Source: an uncultured Methanosarcinales archaeon
Lineage (GTDB): Archaea > Nanobdellota > Nanobdellia > Woesearchaeales > JAGVZT01
Assembly (NCBI GenBank): GCA_964419615.1
Contig: CAYQPU010000002.1
Coordinates: 9,778-73,777, forward strand
Length of the DNA stretch: 64,000 bases
Direction of reading: 5' to 3'
In this document: piece after piece, positions 2,523 to 61,965 of the stretch
Numbering within the stretch: position 1 is the first letter of the stretch
Layout of the letters: each line of letters starts with the position of its first letter
Notes under the pieces: generated by a model
What the model saw: only the letters and a program-made list of their open reading frames with translations
The model's database searches: none
What the model was told of the DNA's origin: nothing
Position numbers and translations under genes: made by a program

Positions 2523-2654
2523 AAACTAGCTTAATATAACTCCTCATTAAATATATTTCGGAACTATTTTCAAATATAGGAGCATCATCCTAAATTAAGT
2601 TGTTGTTTTATTTTGAGCAAGGCTACAGTTTAATATTTCTAACAAAACTTCCAC

Positions 2655-2808
2655 CAAGTTTGTGGCTCCAGGCCGGTTCACTCGACAGTTTGTTGAATTC
2701 TGATTGATTATCTTTAATATATCTGCGCAATATGACAAACTGTTCCGCACAGTCTCTAACGATTTTCGTTGTCTCGTTCACAGTATTTTTGGCCAGGGAG
2801 CCACAAAC
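2655..2808 (+). ncRNA. Copy 1 of a ~150-nt structured repeat element (candidate ncRNA or MITE)
   Basis: Terminal inverted arms aagtttgtggctccaggcc / ggccagggagccacaaact. Internal conserved blocks CCAGGCCGGTTC, CAGTTTGTT...ACAAACTGTTCC and GTCTCnTTCACA..TTGGCC are shared with the copies at 55805-55944 and 35219-35366. Confidence 0.4.
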
Positions 2809-3019
2809 TATTTTCGAATAATATCTTCTGTTATAGTTGGATCTTATCCAAAGCATGAAAACAAACAACTTTAATCAGGTTACCAGAAAGATAAAAATGC
2901 ACATGTGCAATTATTAAATTGGCTGGTAATAAAATATATGATGAAGCCCGGTTATAGGAAAAGTTTATATAAATTTATCAACTAATCAAACATGAGGGGA
3001 TAAATAAAAGCTCTTTGAA

Positions 3020-4450
3020 ATGGTAACAATAATACCAATAACAAACAAATGCAACCAGATGTGTGTATACTGCTCAGCACATGGAAGAGAAGATTCACCT
3101 AAAGAATATATTCTTAAGCAAATAAACTTGGCAAAAGACCATTTAATAATCACTGGAGGAGAAACAACACTCTCACCTGATTTAATTAAATACATTAAAA
3201 AGGCCAAAGAAAAAGATTTGTATGTTGAACTCCAGTCAAATGGGACTATGTTCTATTATAAAGATTTTGCAAAAAGAGTGGTTGATGCGGGCGTAGACTT
3301 ATTTAATATTGCAATGCAATCACACATTAAAGAAACCTATAACAGAATCACTCAAACCAAAGGACTTTTGCCAAAAAAAATCCAAGGTATCAAAAACCTT
3401 CTTGATCTAAATGCAAAGGTAAGGATAACGTGTGTTATTAATAAATTGAATTACACAGAGCTTGAAGAATTTAGCAAACATATACTTGAAAACTTTGATA
3501 ACATCTTCTTGTTAGAATTCAACTTTATAAAAGCTTTAGGTCTAGCAGAAAAAAACAAAGAGATTGTACCAACTTATGAGCAAGTCTCACCTTATTTAAT
3601 AAATGCCCTAAAACTTTGCAAAGGCAGATTCAGAATATTAATAGATCACATCCCACTTTGCTATATAAAAGGATTTGAAGAAAATCACGCAGATGTTTTC
3701 AAGATCACAAATAAAAAAAATAAAGACTTTTTCAGTGAAAAAACTCATCTAAGTGAATGCAAGCAATGCACTCTTAATTCAATCTGCCTGGGCCCTAGAA
3801 AAGATTATCTTGAAGTTTACACACCAAAGCTAATTCCATCAAACAAAGATCCAGATAAAATAACTCAAGGAGCCACTGGTAAATCAGAAATCCTTATTAA
3901 TGATGATAACTACAAAAACCCAGTAAAAAACATTGCAGGCATGCATGTATTCAAGCTTGGCCAGTTAACCCCAGAAGTTAATGGGGTTATAGATCAGATA
4001 TACTTAAATTTTGACAAATTAATTGAAAATAACACCTCATTTGAATTAATTGATTTTCCAGTATGCTTATTTCGTCCATACAAAAGATACATTAAAAAAT
4101 CAGGCAAGCAGCAGAAAATAGAGATATGCAATGACTGTATCCATTCAAAAGACTGCTTTGGATTTAATAAAATATTCCTAGATGAGGAAAATAAATTAAA
4201 AATGCCCATAATCAACAAAAGCAGCATACTAACTGACAATGAAAAATGTATGCTTCAGATACTAAACCATGAGAACAACATCTCAACACAAAGAATCCTT
4301 GAACTAACGCCAAACTTCCTCATATGCGCAGACTGTGCAGGTGGTGCAAATGTGATGCAGGCTGGAGAAAAGCTAATCAATAAAAAGCTTGTTGGAAGAG
4401 AATTAAAAAACAAAGGTTATATTTGGAGACTAGTAAAAAATGAAAATTAA
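3020..4450 (+). CDS. Radical SAM protein (MoaA/PqqE-like core, auxiliary Cys cluster) with a ~190-aa Cys-containing C-terminal extension
   Basis: CNQMCVYC (CxxxCxxC) at residues 11-18, GGETTLSPDL, and the paralog C-terminal motif CKQCTLNSICLGPRKDYLEVY. Extra CNDCIHSKDC and CADCAGG sites in the extension. Confidence 0.7.
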   Translation: MVTIIPITNKCNQMCVYCSAHGREDSPKEYILKQINLAKDHLIITGGETTLSPDLIKYIKKAKEKDLYVELQSNGTMFYYKDFAKRVVDAGVDLFNIAMQSHIKETYNRITQTKGLLPKKIQGIKNLLDLNAKVRITCVINKLNYTELEEFSKHILENFDNIFLLEFNFIKALGLAEKNKEIVPTYEQVSPYLINALKLCKGRFRILIDHIPLCYIKGFEENHADVFKITNKKNKDFFSEKTHLSECKQCTLNSICLGPRKDYLEVYTPKLIPSNKDPDKITQGATGKSEILINDDNYKNPVKNIAGMHVFKLGQLTPEVNGVIDQIYLNFDKLIENNTSFELIDFPVCLFRPYKRYIKKSGKQQKIEICNDCIHSKDCFGFNKIFLDEENKLKMPIINKSSILTDNEKCMLQILNHENNISTQRILELTPNFLICADCAGGANVMQAGEKLINKKLVGRELKNKGYIWRLVKNEN

Positions 4451-5669
4451 AAAAGATTACCCTGCATTACATAGAAAAATTGATGGCAAACAAATTATTT
4501 ACTTTGATAATGCGTGCGCCATGCTCAAACCAAAGCTGGTGATTGATGCTATTAATTATTATTATCATAATCTAGGCAGCTGTGCAGGCTCAAGAGGAAC
4601 ATACAGCCTAAATGAAGAAACAAATGATATATGCGAAAGATCAAGAGAATTAGTAGCTAATTTCATTAATGCTAGTCCAAGAGAAATAATATGGACAAAA
4701 AACACAACAGAGAGCATTAACCTTGTAGCAAACTCTTTTAGATTTAATAAAGATGATGAAGTTATAGTATCAACATTAGACCACCACAGCAATATTCTAC
4801 CATTCTATGAACAAAGGAAAAGAGGAGTTAGACTTAAAATTCTGGAAATCAAAGATGAATTTGATTTAGAGCAATTAAAAAAAACAATCACCCCTAGAAC
4901 AAAGATTATATCTCTAACCCATGCTTCTAATGTAACAGGCCAAGTTCTTCCAATGAAAGATATCTGTGATATTGCTCATGAAAAAGACATATTAGTCTTA
5001 AGCGATGAAGCTCAGTTCATAGCTCATAAAGAATTAGATTTAAGGAACATAGATGCTGACTTTGCAGCATTCTCATCACATAAAATAGGGGGAGATACTG
5101 GACTTGGTGTATTATATGTCAAAGAAGAATTACTTGAGCAGTTAGAAAATTACAATGTTGGGGGAAGTACAGTAACTGATGTTTTATACGAAAAAGACAA
5201 ATTCATACCAAAATACATTAGAGGAGTTAGAAGATTTGAAGCTGGATTGCAGCATTATTCTGGAATAATTGGAATTGGTGCAGCAGTAAAGCAACTCACA
5301 AGAATTGGTCTTGAAAATATTGAAACTCATGAAAAAAAGCTAATAAGGACCTTATGGAAAGGGTTATCATGTTTTGATTTCAGATTCTTGTCCAGGAAAT
5401 CTCCAAGTAATATTCCTGTTTTCTCTTTTGTCCCAAAAATAAACCCAAATGATTTTGCAGTATATATGGACAAAGAAGTAAAGAACTATAAAATTATGAT
5501 GCGGGCAGGAAACCACTGCGCAAGTCCCTTATATTATTCAAAAGGCATATATCCAAGCCAAGGAGAAGGAAGTGTCAGAATCTCGTTATTTGCCTACAAT
5601 ACAAAGGAAGAGTTGGATATTTTTATTGAAAAAACAAATGAGTTAATTGATAAATTAAACAAATTGTAA
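4440..5669 (+). CDS. Class V aminotransferase / cysteine desulfurase-like (NifS/SufS/CsdA family), PLP-dependent
   Basis: SSHKIGGDTG (PLP-lysine SxHK motif) and LDHHSNILP. The 409-aa size fits; the start overlaps the upstream radical-SAM gene and the stop abuts the next one. Confidence 0.7.
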   Translation: MKIKKDYPALHRKIDGKQIIYFDNACAMLKPKLVIDAINYYYHNLGSCAGSRGTYSLNEETNDICERSRELVANFINASPREIIWTKNTTESINLVANSFRFNKDDEVIVSTLDHHSNILPFYEQRKRGVRLKILEIKDEFDLEQLKKTITPRTKIISLTHASNVTGQVLPMKDICDIAHEKDILVLSDEAQFIAHKELDLRNIDADFAAFSSHKIGGDTGLGVLYVKEELLEQLENYNVGGSTVTDVLYEKDKFIPKYIRGVRRFEAGLQHYSGIIGIGAAVKQLTRIGLENIETHEKKLIRTLWKGLSCFDFRFLSRKSPSNIPVFSFVPKINPNDFAVYMDKEVKNYKIMMRAGNHCASPLYYSKGIYPSQGEGSVRISLFAYNTKEELDIFIEKTNELIDKLNKL

Positions 5670-5670
5670 A

Positions 5671-6576
5671 ATGGAAGATACACAAACAATAATTCTTGTG
5701 ACTGGTGATTGCAACCAGAACTGTGTATTTTGTTCTGGAGAGCAAAGCGGTGCAGATAGAGAAGCTCAGAGTGATGAAGAGATTCTAAAACTCATTAAAA
5801 ATTAAAAGTGCACTCTTTCTATTGAGGGAGGAGAACCAACATTATCAAACAAACTTGCAGAATACACAGTAATTTCAAAAAAAGGAGGAACCAAAGACAT
5901 TATTCTTGTGACAAACGGTGTTAGATTATGTTATAAAGATTACTGCAAAAAATTACTCAAAGCAGGAGTCACTTTATTTAACATTAACTTCCCTCACAGT
6001 GATGAGAAAAAATGTGATGCTATAACACGAACAAAAGGTCATTATAAACTAAGAAAAAAAGGAATTAAGAACTTAATTGAACTCGGAGCAGGAGACAAAG
6101 TAAGGTTTAATTTTGTTATCAATAAAACAAATTTTGACAACATGGTTGATTATGTCAAGATGGTTAAAACCGAATTTCCTGAGATATTCTATATTGAGTT
6201 TAATTATGTCAAAGTATTAGGATATGTAAAAAAGAGAAAAGCACTTGTACCAACATTAACTCAGGTTCAACCATTCTTTAATAAAGCACTGGAATTCTGC
6301 AAGAAAAATGATGTAAGAATAATTGTAGATGGAATTCCTCTTTGCTTGATGCAAGGATATGAGCATCTAAACATTGACACACAATTCATCATAGATTCCA
6401 TACTTAACCCATTTATTGAAGAAAAAATCAAACCCAAGGTTTGTAATTCCTGTTCACTAAGTAAAATTTGTTCAGGAATGAGAAAAGATTATTATGAAAT
6501 ATTTGGAGCTGATGAACTTAAACCTTCTAGTACAAACCCCAAGCAAATTATAAAAATAATAAAATGCAAAGAATAG
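5671..6576 (+). pseudogene. Radical SAM paralog interrupted by an in-frame TAA
   Basis: MEDTQTIILVTGDCNQNCVFC (CxxxCxxC) from 5671. An in-frame TAA at 5803-5805 is followed in the same frame by KCTLSIEGGEPTLS (the GGEP motif). The ORF track lists only 5908..6576. The C-terminal CNSCSLSKICSGMRKDYYEIFGADELKP matches the paralog motif. Confidence 0.6.
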
Positions 6577-7481
6577 ACCTTCAATTAAACATGACCTGCA
6601 ATGAGAATTGTTTATTTTGCGCTTCAGCTGATGGCTCAAATTCATTTACAGACACTAAGAAATCAATTGAAATAATTCAGGATGCAATTGAATCTGGTGT
6701 GACAGATATCTGTTTTTCTGGTGGAGAACCCACCTTAAGAGACGATCTTCCAATATTAGTTAATTACATCAAAAAACAAAATCCACTGATTAAAGTTACT
6801 GTATTAACAAATGCTATGAGGCTTTGTTATGAATGGTACTCAAAAAAACTAGACAAAGTGGATTATTTTAACATCTCGGTTCATGGTTCAAATAGTAAAC
6901 CAAATGATGCACTAACCCGAACTCCAGGAAGTTTTGATAAAACAATATCTGGAGCAACAGTGATTCAAGAATTAGGTTATACTTTTGGATTTTATTTTGT
7001 TATAACTAAAACTAACTATAAGGAGATTGTCGAGTTTGCAGAGTTTGTAAAAAAGAATTTTCCAAAATGTAAGGCCATTACATTTTCTTTCCCATATTTA
7101 TCAGGGAACATGCTCAAACATTTATTCTTATTGCCAAAACTTTCAAAAATAAGTCCTTTGTTGGATGAATCTAAGAAACTATGTGAAGATGCAGGAATTG
7201 GATGGGAATTATCCAGTTGCGGTCTTATGCCATTATGTACTTTAAGTGTGCCAATCAGAGCAAAGGTAATAAAGAATAATGAGTCTTATAATGAAGAATC
7301 AATTCAAACAACATCACAAGAAGGAAATAAAGATTATGTGGTAACAAAACAAAACTATCAGAACCAACATTTTGTTAGGAGCTCTGCTTGTGAGAATTGC
7401 ACCCACAATTCTTTGTGTCCAGGTGTGTGGAAACAATATTCAGAAATCTATGGTACAGACGAGCTAAAGACTATTCACTAA
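6564..7481 (+). CDS. Radical SAM protein, MoaA/PqqE-like paralog
   Basis: CNENCLFC at the N-terminus, GGEPTLRDDL, TNAMRL, and the C-terminal CENCTHNSLCPGVWKQYSEIYGTDELK. Confidence 0.7.
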   Translation: MQRIDLQLNMTCNENCLFCASADGSNSFTDTKKSIEIIQDAIESGVTDICFSGGEPTLRDDLPILVNYIKKQNPLIKVTVLTNAMRLCYEWYSKKLDKVDYFNISVHGSNSKPNDALTRTPGSFDKTISGATVIQELGYTFGFYFVITKTNYKEIVEFAEFVKKNFPKCKAITFSFPYLSGNMLKHLFLLPKLSKISPLLDESKKLCEDAGIGWELSSCGLMPLCTLSVPIRAKVIKNNESYNEESIQTTSQEGNKDYVVTKQNYQNQHFVRSSACENCTHNSLCPGVWKQYSEIYGTDELKTIH

Positions 7482-7524
7482 ATGTTTTTTTGAAACCTGA
7501 AGCTTTAAACTTGGGTTAATTCTC

Positions 7525-9162
7525 TTATGCTTTGATAGAATGTTTATTTATCTCTTTATATGCAATCTCCCTGAATTCTACTGGATCACCTGTTCTTGGT
7601 GAAAGTTCTTTAAATGAATTAAGTATTTCTTTGTGTATTATATTTTCAGTGTTTTCTTTATTAAGTTGATTTATTTTCAGCATTGCAGATTCACCTGTAA
7701 AAACATAATCGATGCGAAACAATGCCTCTTCCTTGCCAACTACAACCTTAATCAGATTGTCTGAATAATATTTATTAATTGCTTCAATTATTTTTTCTTT
7801 TCCGATAAAAAACAGACCATAAAAGAACTTGTCTTTTCCTGTTTTTGGCAGATAATAAATCTGATCACCTTCTTCTCTTACTTGTCCCAGCTGCTTTAGC
7901 TTTTCAAGTGGCTCAGAAAAAACATCATTCAACTCTTTTTTGAAGTTTTGCTTAAAATTACTTTTTGAGATTTGGGATATGTTTACAATAATCTCAAAGA
8001 CAAACCTTTGCATTTCTTCAGCTTCTGAGAACTCAATCATGCTAAATTTACTTTTTATTGGATCTAAGGTGGGTGGGTTGCTAAAGTAACGAATTTTATT
8101 TTTAATATATGAACTAGCATGATGACCAAGTCCCAACACAGATCCTTTACAATCAACATTAAAGTGATACACATCTGGTATTTTCTGGGCAGAAGAAAGC
8201 AAAAAGAGCATTGAAGCGGCATTTCCTGCATCAAGTATTCTCTCATCTGGAGATTCATATCCCTTGCTTACAGCATACTTGATTATTTGGGGCATGCACT
8301 CTCTTAGTTCATTAAAATGCTTTTGAAATTCACCAAGACTTCCATTAAAATACTTTTTCAGATATGAGACTGTAGGCTGGCATTTGTAAAGCCTAACTGT
8401 TGTAGGCTGAAGATCAAGTAATCTCTTAAAACTTTTTGTAAAGGTCTTTTTTGTATCTTTGTATAGTCCAATTATCATATCTGTGTTATACTGTTCAAAG
8501 CCAAGCTCTCTGCAATTTGTAATGCATTTTGTGATCATATCTTCATTTTGATAATCTCTATTTATTGACTTAAGAACATTCAAATTTAGTGACTGTACTC
8601 CAAAACTAACCCTATTAAATCCAGCTTGTTTTAATATTTTCAATTTATTGAATGTTGTGCTCTGAGGATTTAATTCAAATGTTTTTTCACTGGTGTCTAA
8701 AAAACTTGCATATCTAAAGAATATTTCAAGTATCTCTGATAAGTCAGTATTATCAAAAAGACTTGGAGTCCCGCCTCCAAAATACAGATTATGGAACTTT
8801 CTTTTTTTTAGCACTTCTTTAAAAAGATGTATTTGATTAATCAGACATTCTGCATATTCCTTTACCTGTCTCTTGTTTTTAACAATTCCTTTATGATATA
8901 TGCAAAAATAGCACTTTGAATAACAATAAGGCACACCAATATAAACATTAATCTTATCAGTTTTATTATCAGACAGATAACTTAGCCATTTTTTCCTTAT
9001 ATAATCTCCATTAACTACCTTTGATTTTTTAAGCAGCTGCCTTTCAAATAAATCTGTTAAAAAGAAATTGTGGTGATAGCCATGTTTTTTTAATTGATCC
9101 ATGTAAAAAGAATACACAAACTTCTCAGCTTTGATCTCTTTGTTTATGTCTTTTAAGTCCAT
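7525..9162 (-). CDS. HemN/HemW-like radical SAM protein (coproporphyrinogen-III-oxidase family fold) with a C-terminal extension
   Basis: YIGVPYCYSKCYFCIYH matches the HemN-type Cx3Cx(F/Y)C signature. FGVQSLN matches the HemN-family GVQS motif. 545 aa. Confidence 0.65.
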   Translation of the reverse strand: MDLKDINKEIKAEKFVYSFYMDQLKKHGYHHNFFLTDLFERQLLKKSKVVNGDYIRKKWLSYLSDNKTDKINVYIGVPYCYSKCYFCIYHKGIVKNKRQVKEYAECLINQIHLFKEVLKKRKFHNLYFGGGTPSLFDNTDLSEILEIFFRYASFLDTSEKTFELNPQSTTFNKLKILKQAGFNRVSFGVQSLNLNVLKSINRDYQNEDMITKCITNCRELGFEQYNTDMIIGLYKDTKKTFTKSFKRLLDLQPTTVRLYKCQPTVSYLKKYFNGSLGEFQKHFNELRECMPQIIKYAVSKGYESPDERILDAGNAASMLFLLSSAQKIPDVYHFNVDCKGSVLGLGHHASSYIKNKIRYFSNPPTLDPIKSKFSMIEFSEAEEMQRFVFEIIVNISQISKSNFKQNFKKELNDVFSEPLEKLKQLGQVREEGDQIYYLPKTGKDKFFYGLFFIGKEKIIEAINKYYSDNLIKVVVGKEEALFRIDYVFTGESAMLKINQLNKENTENIIHKEILNSFKELSPRTGDPVEFREIAYKEINKHSIKA

Positions 9163-9296
9163 ATTACTAAAAAGAAGTTTAATGTATAAATAATTTATTA
9201 TAACGAGAATTTTTCAATTAAGAGAAATATGTATTAAAAAAACTTAACAATACATTTATTAACTATTATGCTATACTTTTGTCTTGTGAAACTTTA

Positions 9297-10193
9297 ATGA
9301 CAAATGTTATGGAAATTACCGTAGGATATAAGTGCAATTGTAATTGTAGGTTTTGTTCTGTTGGTCATATGAGAAAAGAATTAACTCTTAGTACAGACCA
9401 AATTAAAAATAAAATTTTGGAAGCAAAAGAAAAAAACATACCAAATATTGGTTTTGGTGGTGGTGAACCAACTATTAGAAAAGATCTTTTTGAGGTCGTA
9501 TCCTTTGCCAAAAAACAGGGATTTAAAGTTATCAGAATCCAAACTAATGGAGTAATGCTTGGTTATGATACTTTTGTTGATAAATTACTCAAAGCAGGAG
9601 CAACATTCTTTAAAATCTCAATCCATGGTCATAATGCAAAGATACATGACCATCTAACTCAATTACCAGGTAGTTTTAATATGGCAATTAAAGGAATAAA
9701 AAACCTTAAAAAAAGAGGTATGTCAGTTGAAATCAATATTGTAATTAACAAATTAAATTACAAGTACCTGCCTCAAATAACTGACTTTTTTATAAAAATG
9801 CAGATTTACAAGTTCTGCTTTATTTATCCTGTTTATGAAGGTAATCTGATTGATAATTTTGGTAAGATTGGCGTAAAGCTAGGTGAAATTTCTCCTTACT
9901 TGACAGATGCTCTGGATAGGGTTAAAGAGCTTGATCTTGACAAAGGAATTTGTCTAAATGTGCCTCCATGTATCCTAAGCCAAGATCCAGATATGCACTA
10001 TGGTTATGTTTACAAGTTTGATACAGTTGTATCAACACCACAAGGAACCAATGACATAGATAATTCAAATAAAGAGAATCTAGTTAAGCCAAAGCAGTGC
10101 AGAAGATGTGTTTTTAATAAAAACTGTATGGGTATATATAAGAGTTACACTAGGTTTTTTGGGATTGATGAGTTTAAACCAGTTCTTAAGTGA
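9297..10193 (+). CDS. Radical SAM protein, MoaA/PqqE-like paralog
   Basis: YKCNCNCRFC, GGGEPTIRKDL, IQTNGVML, and the C-terminal CRRCVFNKNCMGIYKSYTRFFGIDEFKPV. The track ORF starts at a TTG at 9279; the ATG at 9297 is preferred by analogy with the paralog N-termini. Confidence 0.7.
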   Translation: MTNVMEITVGYKCNCNCRFCSVGHMRKELTLSTDQIKNKILEAKEKNIPNIGFGGGEPTIRKDLFEVVSFAKKQGFKVIRIQTNGVMLGYDTFVDKLLKAGATFFKISIHGHNAKIHDHLTQLPGSFNMAIKGIKNLKKRGMSVEINIVINKLNYKYLPQITDFFIKMQIYKFCFIYPVYEGNLIDNFGKIGVKLGEISPYLTDALDRVKELDLDKGICLNVPPCILSQDPDMHYGYVYKFDTVVSTPQGTNDIDNSNKENLVKPKQCRRCVFNKNCMGIYKSYTRFFGIDEFKPVLK

Positions 10194-10199
10194 TTTGCA

Positions 10200-10880
10200 A
10201 ACAAATTAAGTTACTTAAAATGTCCTTGGGTCTAAACTTACAGCTTAGCTGTAAGTCCGGAACGTAGTGACAGGAGCCCCGCCCAATTTCACTTCGCTTT
10301 GCTACGTTCCTGGGTTGCTCTGGCAACCAATCTCACTCTGTTCGTTGCTTTTAGCATAGCTAAAAACTTCAGGGCGAGGACTTTTAATGCAGTCACTCCG
10401 CACATTCGTGCTATGTTCGGCATCCATAAGCTTTCGCTTCTGGAGTCTGAAAACATTCAGCTAAGCTGAATGTCAGGAACGTTAGTGAGATTATTTACAG
10501 CTCTGCTGTAAGTCCGGAATGTAGTGAAGCGAAATGAGATTATCTTTAGCTAAGCTAAAGATAACGAACGCTAGTGAATTTATCTGCGTGTTGAAGTGAG
10601 GAGCGTAAAAGCCCCCACCTCTCAGAAATTGTAAATTTCTGATGATGGTTGCTAGAGCAACCTGGGAACGGTAGTGAGCATGCTCAGAAACTTTTGGTTT
10701 CTGACATGTAGGAAAGCTCTGCTTTCCAGATGATCAGGACGAAAAGTCCTGACATTTAGGTGGGGGATGACTTGGAAAGCTAAGCTTTACAAGCCAGGAA
10801 TGAAGTGAAGCGAAATGAGATTGGCTCCGAACAGCAGATTTTCTTTACATAAGTAAAATGAGTAGAAAAATTTAAATACA
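10200..10880. other. GC-enriched non-coding block of ~11 hairpins; six have AGC-loop-GCU apices and five of those are each followed by a GGAAYG.AGTGA box (possible small-RNA array, origin-like or regulatory region)
   Basis: No ORF in any frame, and local GC is well above the surrounding ~30%. Hairpins: cttacagc-tta-gctgtaag, acattcagc-taa-gctgaatgt, ttacagc-tct-gctgtaa, ttatctttagc-taa-gctaaagataa, ggaaagc-tct-gctttcc, cttggaaagc-taa-gctttacaag. Others: ggttgc-tctg-gcaacc, ggttgc-taga-gcaacc, cagaaat-tgtaa-atttctg, cagaaac-ttttgg-tttctg, caggac-gaaaa-gtcctg. Boxes tccggaacgtagtga, caggaacgttagtga, tccggaatgtagtgaagcgaaatgagatt, cgaacgctagtga and ccaggaatgaagtgaagcgaaatgagatt are present, plus inverted copies ctacgttcctgg. 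Confidence 0.3.
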
Positions 10881-10961
10881 GAAAGACTCCCATTAATCTC
10901 TAAGCTACAAGATGGATTACTAATTAATCAGAAATCAGTAATGTAAAAAATTATAAAAAAA

Positions 10962-11468
10962 GTGTGTGTGAATGTGAAAAACAGATTATGGGTTATATTA
11001 TCAATCTTCAGTTTATTTATGCTTTTGAGTGGATGTAATACAAATGAAGGGGTTAATATGAAGGATTCATTAGACAAACAACAGAAAGTTAGAATTTCGG
11101 ATGTTAGAGACTTAAACGCATATTATGAACCACCAGACGGATTTAGGTTCATTTTTGGCTTAGTTGTTGAAGATCAGGAAGTAGCAAGAAATGGTTTGTT
11201 GAATGTGACCATATCATCAAAAAAAGGTAAGTTGCTGTTAGAGAAATCAATTAACGTAAAATCCAAGGAATTCGGGAAATACACTGTTAATTCAAATAGT
11301 GTGGATAAGGAAATTTTAAGTTATTCTGGTAAGATTCCAATTAGTGAATTCAATGAATCTGAAGTTCCTGAGGGATTGTTTTGTTTAGGTTTTAAGGACT
11401 CAGAAGGAAATCAATTTAATCAAATCTGTTCAAATGTGAAAGGGCTTCCACCTTTCCATAATGATTGA
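10962..11468 (+). CDS. Putative secreted lipoprotein
   Basis: N-terminal signal with a lipobox-like LLSGC (MCVNVKNRLWVILSIFSLFMLLSGCNT). 168 aa; no other recognisable domain. Confidence 0.35.
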   Translation: MCVNVKNRLWVILSIFSLFMLLSGCNTNEGVNMKDSLDKQQKVRISDVRDLNAYYEPPDGFRFIFGLVVEDQEVARNGLLNVTISSKKGKLLLEKSINVKSKEFGKYTVNSNSVDKEILSYSGKIPISEFNESEVPEGLFCLGFKDSEGNQFNQICSNVKGLPPFHND

Positions 11469-11511
11469 CTTATAAGCAAAGCTTAAATACACATTTCTTA
11501 ACTCATTTTAC

Positions 11512-12624
11512 ATGGAATTGATCATTGATATTTTGTCTATAATCTGTGTAATCATTTTAGGGATTATCACAAGCTATGAAGATATTAAAGAGAATAAAAT
11601 AAGAAACAAATGGGTGGGACCTGCAATTCTAATTGCTTTGGTTTTATTCATCGCAAGAATTGCGAGTGTGAAAATCCTTGGACAAGGCCTCGTCTCTGGA
11701 TATATCTGGGAATATCTGTCCAATTTTGTATTGTCTTTTGGAGTAGGTTTTGTTATATGGGAATTAAAACTTTGGAATGCGGCTGATTCAAAGTTAATGC
11801 TTGCCTATGCTGCATTGATCCCTTTCACATTTTATTACTGGGGTTATACAGACAAGTTCCCCAGTTTCACCCTTTTTACCAATACATTTATACCTTACTT
11901 GTTGATTGGTACAACCTACCTAATTATAAAAACAGATAAGAAAACAATATGGGATGTAATTAAACAAAAAGTAATTAGAACACTGCCAAGTTCACTTTCT
12001 ATGATTATAGGTTTCTTATGGATTACTAATAAGTTTACTAGCTTGCTTAATTTTAGTGGGACAGAGAGATTTAATATTGTTATTGTCATAGCTATGATGA
12101 TTATATCTGAAAGATATTTAAAAGTGAAAGTTACCTATCTGGGAATCGGGCTCAGTTTACTAGCAGTAATTCTTGACTTTAACATGTTTGACCTAAAGTT
12201 TTTTCTTAAGATGTTAAAGACCATTTTCTTTTATATTATGTTAAGGTTTTTTATTGTAAGCTTAGGATTCAAATTCTTTACAAAAAGAGTCAGAGTTGCA
12301 GATCTTGAGCCAGGGATGGTTCTTGCAGACAAAATAATAGAGAGTGAAGGCAAGTATAGAGTACAGGAAAGGATTCAGATCAGTATTTCACAAGCTGTTT
12401 TAGAAAAAGTTAAAGCAGATGATGTAATTAAGCCAAATCCTGAGGGACTAAGCAAAGAAGAAATTGAAAAAATCAAAAATTTGCGCAAATCAAAAAAACT
12501 AGACATTTATTCAGTGAATATTGCAAAGATTTATCCTTTTGCTCCGTTTTTGTTTTTAGGAGTAATTCTAACCCTTATTTGTAAAGGAAGTGTACTCACA
12601 AGAATCTATATGTTGTTAACATAA
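11512..12624 (+). CDS. A24-family prepilin/preflagellin peptidase-like polytopic membrane protein with a C-terminal soluble extension
   Basis: N-terminal TM then SYEDIKENKIRNKWVG (first catalytic Asp motif of the PibD/FlaK type). Second motif NAADSKLMLAYAAL (GxxD-KL-like). About 8 TM segments. Confidence 0.45.
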   Translation: MELIIDILSIICVIILGIITSYEDIKENKIRNKWVGPAILIALVLFIARIASVKILGQGLVSGYIWEYLSNFVLSFGVGFVIWELKLWNAADSKLMLAYAALIPFTFYYWGYTDKFPSFTLFTNTFIPYLLIGTTYLIIKTDKKTIWDVIKQKVIRTLPSSLSMIIGFLWITNKFTSLLNFSGTERFNIVIVIAMMIISERYLKVKVTYLGIGLSLLAVILDFNMFDLKFFLKMLKTIFFYIMLRFFIVSLGFKFFTKRVRVADLEPGMVLADKIIESEGKYRVQERIQISISQAVLEKVKADDVIKPNPEGLSKEEIEKIKNLRKSKKLDIYSVNIAKIYPFAPFLFLGVILTLICKGSVLTRIYMLLT

Positions 12625-12679
12625 TTAAACATAAGATATAAAAAGTCAACAGAAAAGTTTAAATAACTACCAACATATC

Positions 12680-13135
12680 TTGAAAATTGGTGAGAGGATG
12701 GATGTAATAAAAACTATTGACAATATCTCAATATATAAAGATAATGTAGTACTTAGTGTGAATGAAAAAATATATCCTCTGGATATAATCTATTCTGCTT
12801 CCTATGTGTTTATGGATCGGGCATATGTTGTGATGGGTGGAGGTGGAGATGATTCAGAGGTTTTGGTGACTCTGAGGCCCAAAAAGAAAGAAAATCTAGA
12901 AGAACTTGGTAGGGATTTTAATAATGAGCTTATTAATTATGCTGTTTACAAAGAACAAAGTGTCAAGAGTAGAGGGATTAAAGAAACAATTGTTCGAAAA
13001 GCACTTGAATCTAATGTCCCAAGTTCAGGCGAATGTTCTGATGATGAATTGGGTGAGGACTCTGATGAGAGCTATAAAGATGATCCTTTAGGCATAGCTG
13101 TTCCATGGGAAGAAAAGGAAGGGAAGAATGAATAA
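12680..13135 (+). CDS. Small acidic protein, paralog of the next gene; candidate HxsD-like accessory protein
   Basis: 151 aa. It shares ...Y..D..YV.....G...VLVTL+PK.K..L+ELG.+F.N.LI... with 13128..13373. ELINYAVYKE loosely resembles the LLNDYxLRE signature I recall for the His-Xaa-Ser system protein HxsD. It lies immediately upstream of the SPASM maturase. Confidence 0.3.
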   Translation: MKIGERMDVIKTIDNISIYKDNVVLSVNEKIYPLDIIYSASYVFMDRAYVVMGGGGDDSEVLVTLRPKKKENLEELGRDFNNELINYAVYKEQSVKSRGIKETIVRKALESNVPSSGECSDDELGEDSDESYKDDPLGIAVPWEEKEGKNE

Positions 13136-13373
13136 TATCACAGTAAAAAAAGGGGTTGTTCGAATATTGGTTGATACCCGGTACTATGGTTTTGGAGCAG
13201 TACTCACAGCTGCAAAGGCATACCTGGATTCCTGTTGGGTCTTTGTTGATGGGGATCTTGAAGATCAGGTTTTGGTTACATTAAAACCTAAAGACAAGAA
13301 AATTGATGTAGATTTGTTAGGATTCGAGTTTTTTAATTTTATGCTGGGGACAATTCAAAATGCCTACACCTAG
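13128..13373 (+). CDS. Small protein, paralog of 12680..13135; candidate HxsD-like
   Basis: 81 aa. VLVTLKPKDKKIDVDLLGFEFFNFMLG aligns with VLVTLRPKKKENLEELGRDFNNELINY of the preceding gene. It overlaps its neighbours by 8 and 14 nt (operonic). Confidence 0.3.
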   Translation: MNNITVKKGVVRILVDTRYYGFGAVLTAAKAYLDSCWVFVDGDLEDQVLVTLKPKDKKIDVDLLGFEFFNFMLGTIQNAYT

Positions 13374-14784
13374 GGCTTTTGATTTTATTGGTAGAACTAA
13401 GAAAATTGGTTCCAAGTATTTTGTTGCAAATATAGATGGTTCTTTTACTATGTTAACTGAAGAGGAGTATAGGAATCTTCTTTTAAAGAATCTTGACAAA
13501 GAGCTTTTTTTGGATTTAGAATCCAAGGGAGTTATTATCACGAGTAAGAATATTGATGTTATTGCTGGGCATTTTAGAAGAAGAAGGCAGGTTGTTTATC
13601 AGGGACCAAATTTACATATAGTCATACCAACTTTGAGGTGCAACCAGGTTTGTCTTTATTGTCATGCAGCCTCAAGAAGAATGGATGCCAAAGATTGTGA
13701 TATGGATAAGGAAACTGCAAAAAAAACTGTAGAATTTATTTTCCAGACTCCCTCCAGACCAATAACAATAGAATTCCAGGGGGGCGAGCCGCTTGTTAAG
13801 TTTGACATTATTAAATATATGCATAAATATGCAAACGAACTAAACAAGAAATATGAAAAAGACATTAGGTTTTCTATTGTTTCAAACCTAACATTGATGG
13901 ATGATAAAAAATTGGATTTTATAACAAAGAACATTATTGGGCTTTGTACAAGCCTGGACGGTCCAAAATACGTGCATGATAAGAACAGAAAGATGATTGG
14001 CGGATCTGGGAGCTATAACCTTGTTACAAATTGGATTCGAACATTTAATCAAGGATACAAGGAAGGCTATGCAAAACTTAATGCACTTGCAACCATCACC
14101 AGGCATTCTTTACCTTACCCAAAAGAAATCATTGATGAATATAAAGATTTAGGTTTGCGCGGAGTTTGGCTTAGGTGGGTGGACCCATTTGGATTTGCTG
14201 GATTTGCGTGGGACAAGATCAGCTATAGTGCTGAAGAATTTCTTGAGTTTTGGAAAAAGGGAGTAGATTATGTGTATGATGAATTAAAGGGATTTAAAGA
14301 GCTATCTTCTCTAATTTTGCTTCGAAAGATTTTTGCAAGATATGAACCCGCTTTTTTGGACATACTTAACCCGTGTGGTGCTGGCATTGGCCAGATGGCA
14401 TATATGCACGATGGCAGTATCTACAGCTGTGATGAGGGCAGAATGTATGGGGGAGACTTCTTTAAATTAGGGAATGTTAACCAATCATTTAGTAAAGTTA
14501 TGAGCTCTCCTAAAATGTGCAGCCTTATTGCGAGTTCTGTTAGTGAAAGCTATTTTTGTGATCATTGTGTATATCAACCTTATTGCGGGGTGTGTCCAGT
14601 CTGGAATTTTGCAGACACTGGCACTGTTGTTCCAAAATTGTCAATGGATCTTAGATGTAAAATATTAACCGGTCAGTTTGACTATTTGATTAATAAATAC
14701 TTCACTAATAAAAAATTCCAAAAAACAGTGGATAAGTTAATCAAATTGGGTGATTCTCAGATAGAAAAGAATCTGTGTATTTAA
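13360..14784 (+). CDS. Radical SAM/SPASM-domain maturase (anSME-like; HxsB/HxsC-like) with a ~95-aa N-terminal extension
   Basis: CNQVCLYCHAAS (CxxxCxxC), FQGGEPLV, and a C-terminal SPASM-type Cys array (CGAGIGQMAYMHDGSIYSCDEG ... CDHCVYQPYCGVCPVWNF). An N-terminal domain precedes the core and could serve as a leader-peptide recognition element. Confidence 0.75.
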   Translation: MPTPRAFDFIGRTKKIGSKYFVANIDGSFTMLTEEEYRNLLLKNLDKELFLDLESKGVIITSKNIDVIAGHFRRRRQVVYQGPNLHIVIPTLRCNQVCLYCHAASRRMDAKDCDMDKETAKKTVEFIFQTPSRPITIEFQGGEPLVKFDIIKYMHKYANELNKKYEKDIRFSIVSNLTLMDDKKLDFITKNIIGLCTSLDGPKYVHDKNRKMIGGSGSYNLVTNWIRTFNQGYKEGYAKLNALATITRHSLPYPKEIIDEYKDLGLRGVWLRWVDPFGFAGFAWDKISYSAEEFLEFWKKGVDYVYDELKGFKELSSLILLRKIFARYEPAFLDILNPCGAGIGQMAYMHDGSIYSCDEGRMYGGDFFKLGNVNQSFSKVMSSPKMCSLIASSVSESYFCDHCVYQPYCGVCPVWNFADTGTVVPKLSMDLRCKILTGQFDYLINKYFTNKKFQKTVDKLIKLGDSQIEKNLCI

Positions 14785-14795
14785 TTTTGCAAAAA

Positions 14796-14804
14796 TTTAT
14801 ATAT
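14796..14804 (+). promoter_or_regulatory. Candidate TATA box (tttatatat) for the precursor gene, with the SD-like ggaaggtga at 14829-14837
   Basis: An AT-rich TATA-like octamer ~40 nt upstream of the ATG at 14841. A purine-rich ribosome-binding site is correctly spaced. Confidence 0.25.
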
Positions 14805-14840
14805 CAATAGAATTCAGATATATTAAAAAGGAAGGTGAGT

Positions 14841-15272
14841 ATGGGAAATAAAATTTTGCCAAGAGTTAAAAAATCCCTCCGAGGTTATCTTATGGGGGAG
14901 GATGGTAAGATTAGTAAGCAATCCATGCTTGTTATTGGAACTTTTTTAGGCGCTGCAGCGCTCTCCACAATCACTATAAGTAAAAGCGTTAGTGCCCAAC
15001 ATGTGTCTCATGGTTCACATTGTTCTCATAGCAGCCACAGTGCCCATAGCAGCCATAGTTCACATAGCAACCACGGAAGTCACAGCAGTCACGGTTCTCA
15101 CGGAAGTCACGGTTCTCATGGATCCCATGGATCCCATGGTAGTCATGGTTCCCATAGTAATCATGGTAGTCATGGAAGCCATGGTTCCCATGGTTCCCAT
15201 GGTTCCCATAGTAATCATGGTAGTCATGGATCTCATTGGAATGGATGCTGGCCGGGAGCTAACGTCATATAG
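14841..15272 (+). CDS. His-Xaa-Ser repeat precursor-like protein (HxsA-like): leader with a hydrophobic segment plus ~30 tandem H-G-S/H-S-S/H-x-S triplets
   Basis: MGNKILPRVKKSLRGYLMGEDGKISKQSMLVIGTFLGAAALSTITISKSVSAQ, then HVSHGSHCSHSSHSAHSSHSSHSNHGSHSSH(GSH)n...HSNHGSHGSHWNGCWPGANVI. The ATG at 14841 with its SD is preferred over the track's GTG at 14835. It sits between two SPASM radical-SAM genes. Confidence 0.6.
   Translation: MGNKILPRVKKSLRGYLMGEDGKISKQSMLVIGTFLGAAALSTITISKSVSAQHVSHGSHCSHSSHSAHSSHSSHSNHGSHSSHGSHGSHGSHGSHGSHGSHGSHSNHGSHGSHGSHGSHGSHSNHGSHGSHWNGCWPGANVI
14995..15235 (+). repeat. Tandem 9-bp coding repeat (tcc cat gga / agt cat ggt variants) encoding the (HGS)n array
   Basis: Direct reading shows tcacggaagtcacggttctcatggatcccatggatcccatggtagtcatggttcccat... 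with near-perfect periodicity of 9 nt. Confidence 0.8.
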
Positions 15273-15300
15273 ATTGTAAAACCATTATTTTTGTATTGAA

Positions 15301-17238
15301 ATGCAAATCAGATTATTTAACATTAAAAAGAAGAAGTTTGAATATATTAATGAAAGAGATATCTCTAATCATCTAAGTGAGTTAGATAAGCTAATTCATA
15401 TTGTAAGCAACCATAGAAATAGATATTATTACTTACCAAAAAAAACCGCAATAATTGAAATCCCAAAAAGTATCTCTTGTTACCAGTCTCATCCTTCAGA
15501 CACAGAATCAGATCTGTTCAAAATTGTTGATAAGGATATAAAAAGAGACCGAGAAAAGCCTCTTTTTAAAGATCTAATTATAAATATGCACTCAAAATGT
15601 AATTTGGATTGTAAGTATTGTTTTGGATTTTCAAAAGATAAAGAGTTAGAGACACCCACTGAAACAATAGTGGCTCTCATTAGCTATCTCTATAAAAAAA
15701 GATATTCTCTGAATAGAATCTATTTCTTGGGATCTGGTGAAACACTACTTGAGTTTAATAGATTTAAAGATATAGTTTCGATACTTAAACAGTATTATCC
15801 AAATGTTCCAATAATAGTTGTTACAAATGGTATTTTATCAAAGCAAAAAATAGACTGGTTGATTAAAAGAAAGATAAATATAAGGTTGAGTTGTGATGGT
15901 CCAGCTTTTATAAATGATGTTTCTAGACCCATAAAAAATAGCACAAAAAAACCATCAGAGACAGTTCATGCTAACCTCCAATACATAGTAAAGAATACAT
16001 CTTTATTTACAATAGCACCAACTATTACAAAATTATCTCAGGGATTTGAATCAAACATACTATACTTTTTTTGGAAATTAGGTGTGAAACTTGATAAGAT
16101 CAGCTGGAACCATGCATCATGCAGAGGAAAAGCAAAGGAACAGCCTACTATCTTAATGAATTATGATGAAATTAACAGATCACAAATTGTGTGGGATGAG
16201 TTGGAAGATATACTTGGAGATTACACTAAAACAAATATGTTTGTTAATATGATGGGAACACCTTTTCTTTGTGGAACCATTAATTTTGGCTGGATCACAA
16301 TTGATGAAAGAGGATGTATTAGTAGCTGTTCAAAGCATGTAAATTCTCTGAATAATTCCTTAATTGAAAAACTTTTAATTGGAAGATATGATTTTGAATC
16401 CAAAAAAATCCTTATTTCAAGTAACTCAATTAAGAATACAAATAATTGGATTATATCTGTAATGGAAAAGACAGATTGTTTTAATTGTGAATATCTTTCA
16501 CTTTGTCGGGGCCCATGCTTCTATGATTCACTTGTGATTGAAGACAATATTGGTGAAGATAACAAAACAAATATCCAGTGTATTAAAAGGAAAAATTATG
16601 TTAATAATATCCTACAATATTTGATTGAGACTCATATGTGGAAGAAATATCCACACCACTTAGTAGAGAATGGAATAGAATACTTTAACTATTCTCATAA
16701 TAAGTTTGAGATTAGAGATCCCAATGACCTCCCAAATAAGTTTCAAAGTGCGATCAAGATTAAGATAGACGTTGAAAATAATTTAGGCAAACAAATAGAT
16801 CACTTAATTAATTTAAGTAATTCTGAAAATTATTGTTTTAGATTTTTTTTACTTGAATTTAAAATAAACTTAACCAATCCGGAACAAATAGCTAAGAAAA
16901 TAAACCACTTTCTTGGAAAATTACAGCAAAATTTTGTGTGTTTCCTTGTATTAAAGCCTCTCCCTTATTGTGTTAGGAGATATATTAAAAAAACTTTTTC
17001 AATACCAAACACTTGTCTTGAATGCAACAAAATGTTTACCGTAAAAGACAACAAAGTAATATTTTGTGATGGATCAGATGGGAAGAAATTTGATAAATAT
17101 GTAGACAGGACGCAGATTTTCAATGACTTTAAGAAAATTAATAAGAACACTAATAATCTCTGCCTAAATTGCATTTACAAGGATAGAAAATTATGTTTTG
17201 GTTATGTTGAAAATATTAATTGTATTGCGAACAATTAA
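15301..17238 (+). CDS. Large radical SAM/SPASM-domain protein (second maturase of the pair; HxsC/HxsB-like) with N- and C-terminal extensions
   Basis: ~100-aa N-terminal domain, then CNLDCKYCFGFS, GSGETLLEF and VVTNG. A SPASM-like CFNCEYLSLCRGPCFYD is followed by a Cys-rich tail (CLECNKMF..FCDGSD..CLNCIYKDRKLCFGY). 645 aa. Confidence 0.65.
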   Translation: MQIRLFNIKKKKFEYINERDISNHLSELDKLIHIVSNHRNRYYYLPKKTAIIEIPKSISCYQSHPSDTESDLFKIVDKDIKRDREKPLFKDLIINMHSKCNLDCKYCFGFSKDKELETPTETIVALISYLYKKRYSLNRIYFLGSGETLLEFNRFKDIVSILKQYYPNVPIIVVTNGILSKQKIDWLIKRKINIRLSCDGPAFINDVSRPIKNSTKKPSETVHANLQYIVKNTSLFTIAPTITKLSQGFESNILYFFWKLGVKLDKISWNHASCRGKAKEQPTILMNYDEINRSQIVWDELEDILGDYTKTNMFVNMMGTPFLCGTINFGWITIDERGCISSCSKHVNSLNNSLIEKLLIGRYDFESKKILISSNSIKNTNNWIISVMEKTDCFNCEYLSLCRGPCFYDSLVIEDNIGEDNKTNIQCIKRKNYVNNILQYLIETHMWKKYPHHLVENGIEYFNYSHNKFEIRDPNDLPNKFQSAIKIKIDVENNLGKQIDHLINLSNSENYCFRFFLLEFKINLTNPEQIAKKINHFLGKLQQNFVCFLVLKPLPYCVRRYIKKTFSIPNTCLECNKMFTVKDNKVIFCDGSDGKKFDKYVDRTQIFNDFKKINKNTNNLCLNCIYKDRKLCFGYVENINCIANN

Positions 17239-17653
17239 CATAAGTTACATATAAACCTAAAACATCATTCTCCTTAGTGTCTATCATATAAGAACCCTTG
17301 TCTGTAGTAATTATTGCTATTTCCTTCTCGTGTATGATTTTATTCAATTGGAGTGCAATGGGTTCTGAAGTATCATTAATTCCTAAAGTTTTATTGTTAA
17401 TTGATATAATTGTTTCACCAACCGAGATAGAAGTATTACCAAATTTACTATAAGTGCTAATGTTGACTATTGTTAACCCACAAACAGGATTATTTGAATA
17501 TGCTTCTTTACTTAAGTTTACCCATAACAAAGTTTCATTCATAGAATCATTAACACTAGAAGAATTGGAAAATACTTGGAAAAATAAGTAAAATACAGCA
17601 ACCACTATTATAAACCACACAATTTTCTTTTTTGAATATTTATCTTTTATCAA
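17216..17653 (-). CDS. Small membrane-anchored extracytoplasmic protein (hypothetical)
   Basis: N-terminal TM (KKIVWFIIVVAVFYLFFQVF), then a Ser/Asn-rich region with several N-x-S/T sequons. No domain recognised. Confidence 0.3.
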   Translation of the reverse strand: MIKDKYSKKKIVWFIIVVAVFYLFFQVFSNSSSVNDSMNETLLWVNLSKEAYSNNPVCGLTIVNISTYSKFGNTSISVGETIISINNKTLGINDTSEPIALQLNKIIHEKEIAIITTDKGSYMIDTKENDVLGLYVTYVNCSQYN

Positions 17654-17887
17654 GATGAATTAATAACCTCTTTGTTATATTTTTAAAACTTTCTATTTTT
17701 ATATCCTATTCAAAAGTAGTTTCCAAATATAAAAAGATTTTTGAAACCAGTTTAGTTAATAACATAAATTAAACAGTTTGTGCATAAGATCTTAATCTTA
17801 TTTAACTGCTTAGCTTGGATTTTCAGAAAAAACTTTATTGATTATCCAAAGAAAAGATTTAAATAACATTATTGAGACTTTCTAAAC

Positions 17888-19773: not shown

Positions 19774-20251
19774 AATGATTAAAGAACTTGAAGAATATCT
19801 TAGATTCCCAGTCAAAAGGGTTATTGTTAAATTAGACTATGAGACCCCTCATGATGAGGCTTTCTCATACGCAATTTGTCAGAGATTCTTTAATAAACCA
19901 GATCAGTTAAAAACTGCGATGCAACTTGGAAATAAGGCTCTCAACCAATTGCTAAAAAAAGAAGATTATATCCAGATTAGTCATCTATTTGCACTTGTTG
20001 GGAATATGTACTATCTCCAGGAGAAATATAAAATCAGTGCGGGATACTTTTTAAAGAGCATAAATTATAATAAAAAAGATCTTACCAGTTGGATTGAGCT
20101 GATATTCTCAATAAGAGCCATGGGAGATTTTGATACATTTGATAAGTGTATATTTAATCTTAAAAAGCTATATACGCTTGGACAAAGAGAAGAAGAGATT
20201 ACACAACAAACGCTGCTAAAACTAATTGAGCAGGCATGTAAAAATGGGTAA
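19760..20251 (+). CDS. Hypothetical helical protein (TPR-like repeat character)
   Basis: 163 aa, helical with an A/L/Y/K-rich periodicity. It overlaps the start of the next radical-SAM gene. Confidence 0.25.
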   Translation: MIFNKMIKELEEYLRFPVKRVIVKLDYETPHDEAFSYAICQRFFNKPDQLKTAMQLGNKALNQLLKKEDYIQISHLFALVGNMYYLQEKYKISAGYFLKSINYNKKDLTSWIELIFSIRAMGDFDTFDKCIFNLKKLYTLGQREEEITQQTLLKLIEQACKNG

Positions 20252-23579: not shown

Positions 23580-23666
23580 AGATCCTAAGTTATTCTATTT
23601 GTATTTATTCTTTTTGCCATATGTATCATTCTGGAAGTTTATGATTGACCTCAAAAAGTTATCTTA

Positions 23667-35198: not shown

Positions 35199-35218
35199 CT
35201 GATTCTTTCTGTGTTAAA

Positions 35219-35366
35219 TTAGTTACACCTTAGCCATCTGTGTGAGTGAGACCTAAATCATTACCAAAGTCAAAATGGAACAGTTAGTCAATATTCTAGC
35301 CAAATCAGGTAACTAACTCATAAAACAAATAACAAACTGGCTCACGAACTGGCTTGGTGTAACTAA
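35219..35366 (-). ncRNA. Copy 3 (inverted orientation) of the ~150-nt structured repeat element
   Basis: The reverse complement reads ttagttacaccaagccagttcgtgagccagtttgtta...actaactgttcc...ttaggtctcactcacacagatggctaaggtgtaactaa. It matches copies 1 and 2 block for block, and its terminal helix sequence differs but remains complementary. Confidence 0.4.
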
Positions 35367-35553
35367 TCAGCTTTTGTAAACAAAACATTTAATAATGCAC
35401 TCAGCTTACCTGTTCCTATGAAGCACACAATTAACTTTAGATGTTGTTGTTAGAACTAGCTTCATTGATATTCTATTTTATTTTAAAAATAATAAATAAT
35501 ACTTTAATCACATACAGGAGGTAAACAAATGAAATATAAATTAACAACAAAGG

Positions 35554-55761: not shown

Positions 55762-55804
55762 GCTAATTTAATTTACTTTATAAAACTTGCTTTTAGACAA
55801 GTTA

Positions 55805-55944
55805 GCTCCACCAGGCCGGTTCTTGAGCCAGTTTGTTAACACAAATGCAAATATAATTCAAACTTTCCCAAGTTATTAACAAACTGTTCCTTATTACTTT
55901 TCCCATGAACCTTAGTCTCACTCACATCTTGGCCTAGGTGGAGC
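55805..55944 (+). ncRNA. Copy 2 of the ~150-nt structured repeat element
   Basis: gctccaccaggccggttcttgagccagtttgttaac...gttattaacaaactgttcc...ttagtctcactcacatcttggcctaggtggagc. It sits in the divergent intergenic region upstream of the helicase gene. Confidence 0.4.
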
Positions 55945-56002
55945 AATCCCCACTAGATAATTCTACACAATCCTTTTATACAATCAAATATTAGCATCTT
56001 GC

Positions 56003-61315: not shown

Positions 61316-61316
61316 A

Positions 61317-61907: not shown

Positions 61908-61965
61908 AAGAGTAGGCTTAGGGCATGACACCAAGCAACTTTAAATATTTAAATTCCTATACAAA

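Follow-up and report, generated by a model that had tools for sequence, protein, structure and literature searches.

MITEs of prokaryotes, such as SM1-SM4 of Sulfolobus, are 80-300 bp long, intergenic and bounded by inverted termini, and they form a long hairpin when transcribed. The termini of a transposon are normally its most conserved part. REP/REPIN sequences, which are mobilised by Y1 RAYT transposases, are structured intergenic repeats that form hairpins, and in REPINs the terminal palindromes are conserved and the centre varies. Integron attC sites, up to ~140 nt in size, are recognised as folded hairpins in which pairing matters over sequence and certain extrahelical bases are fixed. 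Among RNAs, archaeal guide sRNAs are single small genes, present as diverged paralogs, that combine invariant boxes with fixed-length spacers, and Y RNAs and bacterial YrlA are paralogous molecules of ~100-200 nt with paired ends, an asymmetric bulge and variable loops. The genomes of DPANN archaea are tiny, and next to nothing has been learned about the non-coding RNAs that they encode.

Here we describe a three-copy element in a 64-kb stretch of DNA (the window; GC 33%) from a Woesearchaeota-like DPANN archaeon. The element is genuine, non-random, structurally constrained and lineage-restricted, it is probably new, and it matches no described family. All three copies reported in a preliminary description were located at their positions and on their strands and were aligned (Table 1). 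Each is ~150 nt long and intergenic, and the gene context bore out that two lie between divergent genes. About 50 near-invariant bases are common to the three copies and fall into five blocks, matching the blocks noted earlier, and the mean column identity is 74%. A variable 5' arm is followed by CCARGCCRGTTC, 6 nt, CAGTTTGTT and a stretch of 40-42 nt that is unrelated between copies; the 3' half then consists of ACWAACTGTTCC, exactly 24 unrelated nt, GTCTCRYTCACA, 3-7 nt, TGGCY, 2 nt and a 3' arm that complements the 5' one. The longer unrelated stretch, described before as an internal loop of ~40 nt, is the tip of a hairpin and measures 40, 41 and 42 nt; the second variable segment, 24 nt in every copy and placed between ...CTGTTCC and GTCTC..., had been overlooked.

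Three matches to the composite pattern ACWAACTGTTCC-N24-GTCTCRYTCACA lie in the window, compared with none in 100 shuffles. A covariance model was built from the three copies and run on the window, also with filters off; it scored the copies at 143-152 bits (E about 1e-34), with the next-best match in the window below 18 bits. Extending this search, which the preliminary description had suggested, to ~76 kb of this genome (the window plus ~12 kb more) returned the three copies only. Compared with shuffled sequences, the folding z-scores were -5.7, -4.9 and -4.5 for copies 1, 2 and 3.

Table 1. Positions of the three copies, their parts and the promoter-like boxes upstream, numbered from the first base of the window.
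Feature	Position	Strand	Remark
TATA-like box TTTAATAT	2629..2636	+	27 nt upstream of copy 1 helix start; TTTAWAWA 6/8
Copy 1, whole element	2656..2809	+	model score 144.7 bits
Copy 1, P1 5' arm	2656-2669	+	
Copy 1, 1-nt A	2670	+	
Copy 1, P1b	2671-2675	+	
Copy 1, GTTC	2676-2679	+	
Copy 1, N6	2680-2685	+	
Copy 1, P3 5' CAGTTTGTT	2686-2694	+	
Copy 1, variable hairpin tip	2695-2734	+	
Copy 1, ACAAACTGTTCC	2735-2746	+	
Copy 1, 24-nt variable segment	2747-2770	+	
Copy 1, GTCTCGTTCACA	2771-2782	+	
Copy 1, TGGCC	2790-2794	+	
Copy 1, P1 3' arm	2797-2809	+	
TATA box TTTATAAA	55777..55784	+	28 nt upstream of copy 2 helix start; 8/8; palindrome
Copy 2, whole element	55802..55947	+	model score 143 bits
Copy 2, strict helix span	55805-55944	+	
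Copy 2, block A	55811-55822	+	
Copy 2, N6	55823-55828	+	
Copy 2, CAGTTTGTT	55829-55837	+	
Copy 2, variable tip	55838-55878	+	
Copy 2, ACAAACTGTTCC	55879-55890	+	
Copy 2, 24-nt variable segment	55891-55914	+	
Copy 2, GTCTCACTCACA	55915-55926	+	
Copy 2, TGGCC	55930-55934	+	
Copy 2, P1 3' arm	55937-55944	+	
Weak TATA-like box TTATTAAA	35388..35395	-	27 nt upstream of copy 3 helix start; 6/8 by hand count
Copy 3, whole element	35217..35368	-	model score 152.1 bits
Copy 3, P1 5' arm	35368-35356	-	
Copy 3, block A	35357-35346	-	
Copy 3, N6	35345-35340	-	
Copy 3, CAGTTTGTT	35339-35331	-	
Copy 3, variable tip	35330-35289	-	
Copy 3, ACTAACTGTTCC	35288-35277	-	
Copy 3, 24-nt variable segment	35276-35253	-	
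Copy 3, GTCTCACTCACA	35252-35241	-	
Copy 3, TGGCT	35236-35232	-	
Copy 3, P1 3' arm	35229-35217	-	

In the consensus fold, a terminal helix P1 of 8-14 bp (14, 8 and 13 bp in copies 1, 2 and 3) leads into a conserved 1x2 internal loop in which A stands opposite AG, UA or AA. Further in come a helix RGCC(R)/(U)GGCY of 4-5 bp, the weak helix P2 (GUGAGC/GUCUCAC) and P3 (CAGUUUGUU/AACAAACUG), the hairpin that bears the variable tip. In the preliminary description the closing helix differed in sequence between copies with its pairing kept, which held up on measurement; its length was put there at 13-19 bp and is 8-14 bp here. The one-nucleotide asymmetry reported at the same position in each copy does have a fixed place, and is really the conserved 1x2 internal loop.

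Pair counts were made on a trimmed version of the consensus structure, in which 93.8% of cells are paired. Nine pairs were changed on both sides, compared with 3.5 +/- 1.5 in shuffles (0/500 reached 9) and with 0-2 pairs in controls with slid partners. This signal is confined to P1/P1b, where 7 of the 17 pairs are compensated and 98% of cells are paired. Only the terminal helix covaries: P2 is unreliable, its inner helix GUGAGC/GUCUCAC being broken and poorly kept in copy 1, and the P3 hairpin CAGTTTGTT/AACAAACTG is conserved in sequence with zero covariation. Since P3 never varies, it is uninformative either way.

Further features of the alignment bear on how the copies arose. The P1 5' arms are homologous, with 9 of 14 positions identical between copies by hand count from the alignment and every difference compensated, so the copies diverged from one ancestor with compensation and are not a core placed in unrelated palindromes. 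Three alignment pairs (20-137, 39-81 and 40-80) are G.U in some copies and A-U in others, which fits RNA pairing on the strand given in Table 1, as the other strand would give C.A mismatches. Minimum free energy does not pick that strand, and the reverse complement of copy 2 folds better by 10 kcal/mol. Conservation is block-wise, unlike that of a decaying repeat, and the ~50 invariant bases beside saturated segments of fixed length argue for purifying selection on the core rather than neutral decay.

TATA-like boxes were found upstream of the helix start of each copy (Table 1). The start codons of protein genes in the window are preceded by TTTAWAWA, mostly with a spacing of 28-32 nt that fits leaderless mRNAs, and the copy 1 box is not at a usable distance from the start of any protein gene. 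The copy 2 box is also ~29 nt from the JGI-called start of a divergent 165-aa gene, with which it may be shared or to which it may belong. A better match (7/8, TTTACAAA) stands at -12 from copy 3, leaving the start site of this copy uncertain. Matches of at least 6/8 at -29 to -26 occur at 17.5% of random intergenic positions, so that three boxes in a row would arise by chance with a probability of ~0.005. The length of P1 tracks the distance from TATA box to core, being 8 bp where that distance is 36 nt and 13-14 bp where it is 40-41 nt, as would be expected of a helix that starts together with its transcript. Because the genes that follow copies 1 and 2 have TATA boxes of their own between element and start codon, at -56 and -28, the element appears to be a separate unit. 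Oligo-T runs follow it at least as regularly on the opposite strand. Given two weak boxes, one palindrome that may be shared, and neither folding energy nor T-runs favouring the strand in Table 1, transcription and its direction are inferences, as are the binding of a protein and any guide role.

Copies 1 and 2 lie upstream of, and codirectional with, a radical-SAM gene (3020) and an Lhr helicase gene (56003), and copy 3 is directed towards a convergent gene, at its 3' end, with no downstream gene on its strand. The ORFs that diverge from the copies are unrelated to one another, and an RNA-protein gene pair was rejected on the ground that these three neighbours are not homologous. Pfam scans of ~60 window ORFs detected housekeeping genes, a large cluster rich in radical-SAM genes and a fragment of a DDE-like transposase; they revealed no reverse transcriptase, TnpB/IscB, IS110-type recombinase, Cas, integrase or Ro-like protein, nor any candidate partner protein gene. 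When the variable segments were compared with the window in an antisense or target search, only noise was returned and no target was found.

The best named homologs of the flanking Lhr helicase are in Candidatus Woesearchaeota/Nanoarchaeota MAGs, the nearest non-identical relative being 83% identical. The host population is present in several JGI and ENA metagenomes, and in contigs from several of these the element is always present and its copies are identical (copy 2 on JGI contig L119; copy 3 on L128, L129 and L131), so there is no insertion polymorphism. At the density of the window ~3 copies would be expected in 78.9 kb from five relatives (74-83% Lhr identity), and none was found there, including upstream of Lhr; a remote similarity at that place in L120 and L123 received no support from the covariance model and was discarded. 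A genome-contig scan for GCCRGTTC-N6-CAGTTTGTT gave at least 118 chance matches, none of which, among the matches listed, had the other blocks. Metagenome scans for blocks C-N24-D and A-N6-B, in a collection without contigs of the source population, gave no match, and neither did viral scans or plasmid and phage BLAST searches with the element. Rfam 15 has no gathering-level match anywhere in the window, and at E up to 10 copies 1 and 2 yielded only scattered matches of 11-16 bits to unrelated families.

The reading we find best, at about even probability, takes the three copies for paralogs of long standing, each encoding a small structured non-coding RNA of ~140-155 nt on the strand given in Table 1. 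Each copy would be transcribed from its own or a shared TATA-type promoter, starting at about the first base of the terminal helix, and the 5' and 3' ends would pair as P1 (8-14 bp) and thereby close and stabilise the RNA. Inside P1 would follow the conserved, purine-rich 1x2 internal loop and the 4-5 bp RGCC/GGCY helix. The near-invariant unpaired GUUC, UUCC and UCACA, together with the invariant base of P3, would provide a fixed scaffold, most plausibly a putative protein-binding core. Two modules would be free to differ between paralogs, the ~40-nt P3 tip and the 24-nt single strand between UUCC and GUCUCAC, and these would be the likely specificity parts, guide or antisense-like; for the 24-nt segment a guide-like role is speculation. 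We give only a small probability to the further proposal that the copies represent an undescribed class of archaeal sRNA, in which a protein-binding scaffold with exchangeable modules makes programmable guide or adaptor RNAs in this DPANN lineage.

A non-autonomous mobile or repeat element, MITE-like or a structured intergenic repeat that has possibly since been exapted, is a less probable but still real possibility. Its terminal helix would then be inverted repeats, both bound by one transposase, and its copies diverged subfamilies. Like prokaryotic MITEs the element is short, non-coding and intergenic, occurs in several copies and in either orientation, and has inverted termini and the capacity to form a hairpin. 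It is lineage-restricted, being absent from the ~79 kb of the five relatives, also from the DNA ahead of their Lhr ortholog; its folding energy is not strand-specific, and the genome has transposase genes (a DDE_Tnp_1-like ORF at 41079-41741 and a Y1 gene of IS200 type just outside the window). Covariation of the arms is likewise expected between transposon subfamilies. The preliminary description had taken conservation of pairing rather than sequence to argue for a structured RNA, and the architecture and the compensated terminal helix do support that; pairing alone does not separate an RNA from inverted repeats, because both ends of any diverged transposon subfamily must match too. We keep the MITE-like reading because relatives that have no copies and arms that match both fit diverged transposon subfamilies.

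The element nevertheless has no transposon hallmarks. Target-site duplications, which had been proposed as the check for a MITE, are absent from every copy, the flanks of all three holding no direct repeat of at least 3 bp when read by eye. Conservation is lowest in the outermost bases of the element and in the length of its arms, which ranges from 8 to 14 bp, and the arms have only the inner CC-A-RGCC / GGCY-WR-GG in common. Its ~50 invariant interior bases stand beside randomised segments of fixed length, whereas recent copies of a mobile element would be near-identical and decaying ones uniformly diverged. There are no near-identical copies in the ~76 kb of this genome and no presence/absence polymorphism across metagenomes, and the viral, plasmid and phage searches were empty. 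In the ~76 kb covered, the element also resembles the ends of neither the DDE-like locus (41079-41741), whose gene is single-copy, nor the Y1 locus (L124), so no cognate transposase ends were seen. REP/REPIN sequences share with it the folding into intergenic hairpins, and a Y1 gene lies ~9 kb beyond the window; a REPIN was rejected, as the conserved and variable parts of the element are reversed and the flanks of the Y1 gene are dissimilar. If the element is a mobile repeat after all, it is an unusual one, with a conserved interior and variable ends.

Arms that are kept in structure and not in sequence, an asymmetric unpaired position at a fixed place, and two strands that fold about equally well would also suit a DNA site acting as a folded single strand or cruciform, either an attC-type recombination site or a protein-binding palindrome, and ~150 nt is near the upper size range of attC sites. 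We regard this as very unlikely. The copies are 20-33 kb apart in mixed orientation, neither in arrays nor at the 3' ends of cassettes; by inspection their ends have no RYYYAAC/GTTRRRY cores (R-box), tyrosine recombinase and integrase domains are missing from the window ORFs scanned, the interior, free in attC, is here strongly conserved in sequence, and the G.U positions are mismatches in one of the two DNA strands. Scarcely probable is a cis-regulatory RNA that forms part of the 5' untranslated region of the gene that follows, as a riboswitch or leader does. It would account for the position of copies 1 and 2 ahead of the codirectional radical-SAM (3020) and Lhr (56003) genes and for an aptamer-like layout of covarying closing helix, conserved junction bases and variable hairpin tip; it is at odds with copy 3, which aims at the 3' end of a convergent gene and has none downstream on its strand, with the TATA boxes that the genes after copies 1 and 2 have beyond the element (-56 and -28), with neighbouring genes that are functionally unrelated, and with the lack of any Rfam riboswitch match.

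Known classes of RNA were considered for the element and rejected. It is not a tRNA or split tRNA: ARAGORN reported nothing, there is no D- or T-loop, the closing helix has 8 to 14 bp and not 7, and the bases after GGTTC in block A are ACT, TTG or GTG and not the RA of a T-loop. No C (RUGAUGA) or D (CUGA) box is conserved in the three copies, they lack a tandem G.A kink-turn and there is no Rfam C/D match, which speaks against a box C/D sRNA. For an H/ACA sRNA, an ACA does stand 2 nt past the 3' strand of P2, but the P2-P3 loop is one-sided, with 28 nt on its 3' strand and none on its 5' strand, and a G.A kink-turn is missing. The loops are 1x2 and not the two offset 3-nt bulges of a bulge-helix-bulge intron, and stop codons seen by eye in most frames speak against a conserved small ORF. 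Enzyme-adjacent guide RNAs (TnpB/IscB omega RNA, IS110 bridge RNA, retron msr-msd, CRISPR) were set aside, as the domains of their partner genes are missing from the ~60 window ORFs.

Other RNA-like features were seen in the same DNA. At 10225-10850 (+), within the radical-SAM cluster, a non-coding stretch of ~600 nt is G+C-richer than its surroundings and folds at -246.7 kcal/mol (z = -10.9 compared with shuffles); no Rfam family reaches threshold there. It is made of about six modules, each a hairpin (..AGCUNAGCU..) plus CCGGAACGUAGUGA, along with complementary segments such as CAAUCUCACUCUGUUCG. Its motifs GGAAC, GUGAG/CUCAC and CUGUUC echo or complement blocks of the three-copy element, which may be coincidence. 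In a relative, a G+C-richer intergenic region (L135 8850-9090) contains GUAAGUGAAAUGAGUAU, which resembles the GUGAAGCGAAAUGAGAUU repeated in the 600-nt region, and the two may contain a common undescribed RNA. In a tRNA-Gln(CUG)-like gene at ~40850-41009 (-), adjoining the DDE-like ORF, the acceptor 5' strand, the D-arm and the anticodon arm are clearly recognisable; ~90 extra nt interrupt its T-arm/acceptor region, probably as two non-canonical introns, and both ARAGORN and Rfam missed it. Neither ARAGORN, applied to the window alone, nor Rfam at gathering level detected an RNA gene in the 64 kb, and Rfam at that level found none in 83 kb more (relatives L123, L134, L135 and L136 and the same-genome flank L124), which suggests that standard models systematically miss the RNA genes of this lineage.

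Two transposase-related genes were noted. The ORF at 41079-41741 (+) encodes 220 aa, with an N-terminal DUF4190 membrane segment and a partial DDE_Tnp_1 domain, and since it is single-copy in all contigs of the population it looks domesticated or degenerate rather than like an active insertion sequence. About 9 kb past the 3' end of the window (L124 9590-10300) is a Y1 transposase gene of the IS200/IS605 type, with a long imperfect hairpin, GGGGTTTCTCACGCAGAACT...AGTTCTGCTTAAGCGAGAAACGCCC, ahead of it. A search with the IS200 homolog reached no other loci of this genome; metagenome contigs of Woesearchaeota contain related transposases in great abundance, with 119 members in one 90% cluster.

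Among the protein genes, positions 3020-21481 form an unusually dense cluster with at least 10 radical-SAM ORFs, an aminotransferase and an A24-type peptidase. A small ORF in it (14835-15272) has 9/18-nt repeats of the CATGGTTCC type that encode His-Gly-Ser repeats, and the cluster may be a peptide-modification (RiPP-like) locus. The best non-self homologs (68-72% identity) of a cysteine synthase at 35954-36838 (+) are mostly from Patescibacteria and not archaea, a similarity that hints at inter-domain transfer among episymbionts, and some of the homologs are fused to an upstream ParB_N-like domain. Three consecutive paralogous ORFs of ~195-250 aa with similar 5' ends lie at 60554-62550 (+), and two adjacent PMT_2 glycosyltransferase genes at 22068-25166 (-) are ~70% identical in DNA over parts.

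The reading of the copies as genes for a structured RNA, suggested by three sequences from one population, makes the element a good candidate and not an established family. Should a programmable guide or adaptor class be behind it, the density in the window would imply possibly dozens of paralogs per ~1 Mb genome, and a conserved multi-copy structured RNA with modules of fixed length would, if real, be a new handle on RNA-based regulation or guidance in DPANN archaea. By description the element resembles Y RNAs and YrlA in size, paired ends, asymmetric bulge, variable loops and paralogy, and differs from them in having no Rfam Y_RNA match, no T-arm-like module, and no Ro/TROVE or RtcB gene in the ORFs scanned. 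It is like archaeal guide sRNAs in being a set of diverged paralogs, in its invariant boxes and spacers of fixed length, and in the ACA that follows a helix (GUCUCAC-UC-ACA); unlike them, it has a one-sided loop in place of a two-sided pseudouridylation pocket, and it is ~3x the size of archaeal C/D sRNAs. Compared with C/D and H/ACA guides, programmable RNAs of the kind proposed here would thus follow a comparable logic through an unrelated structure.
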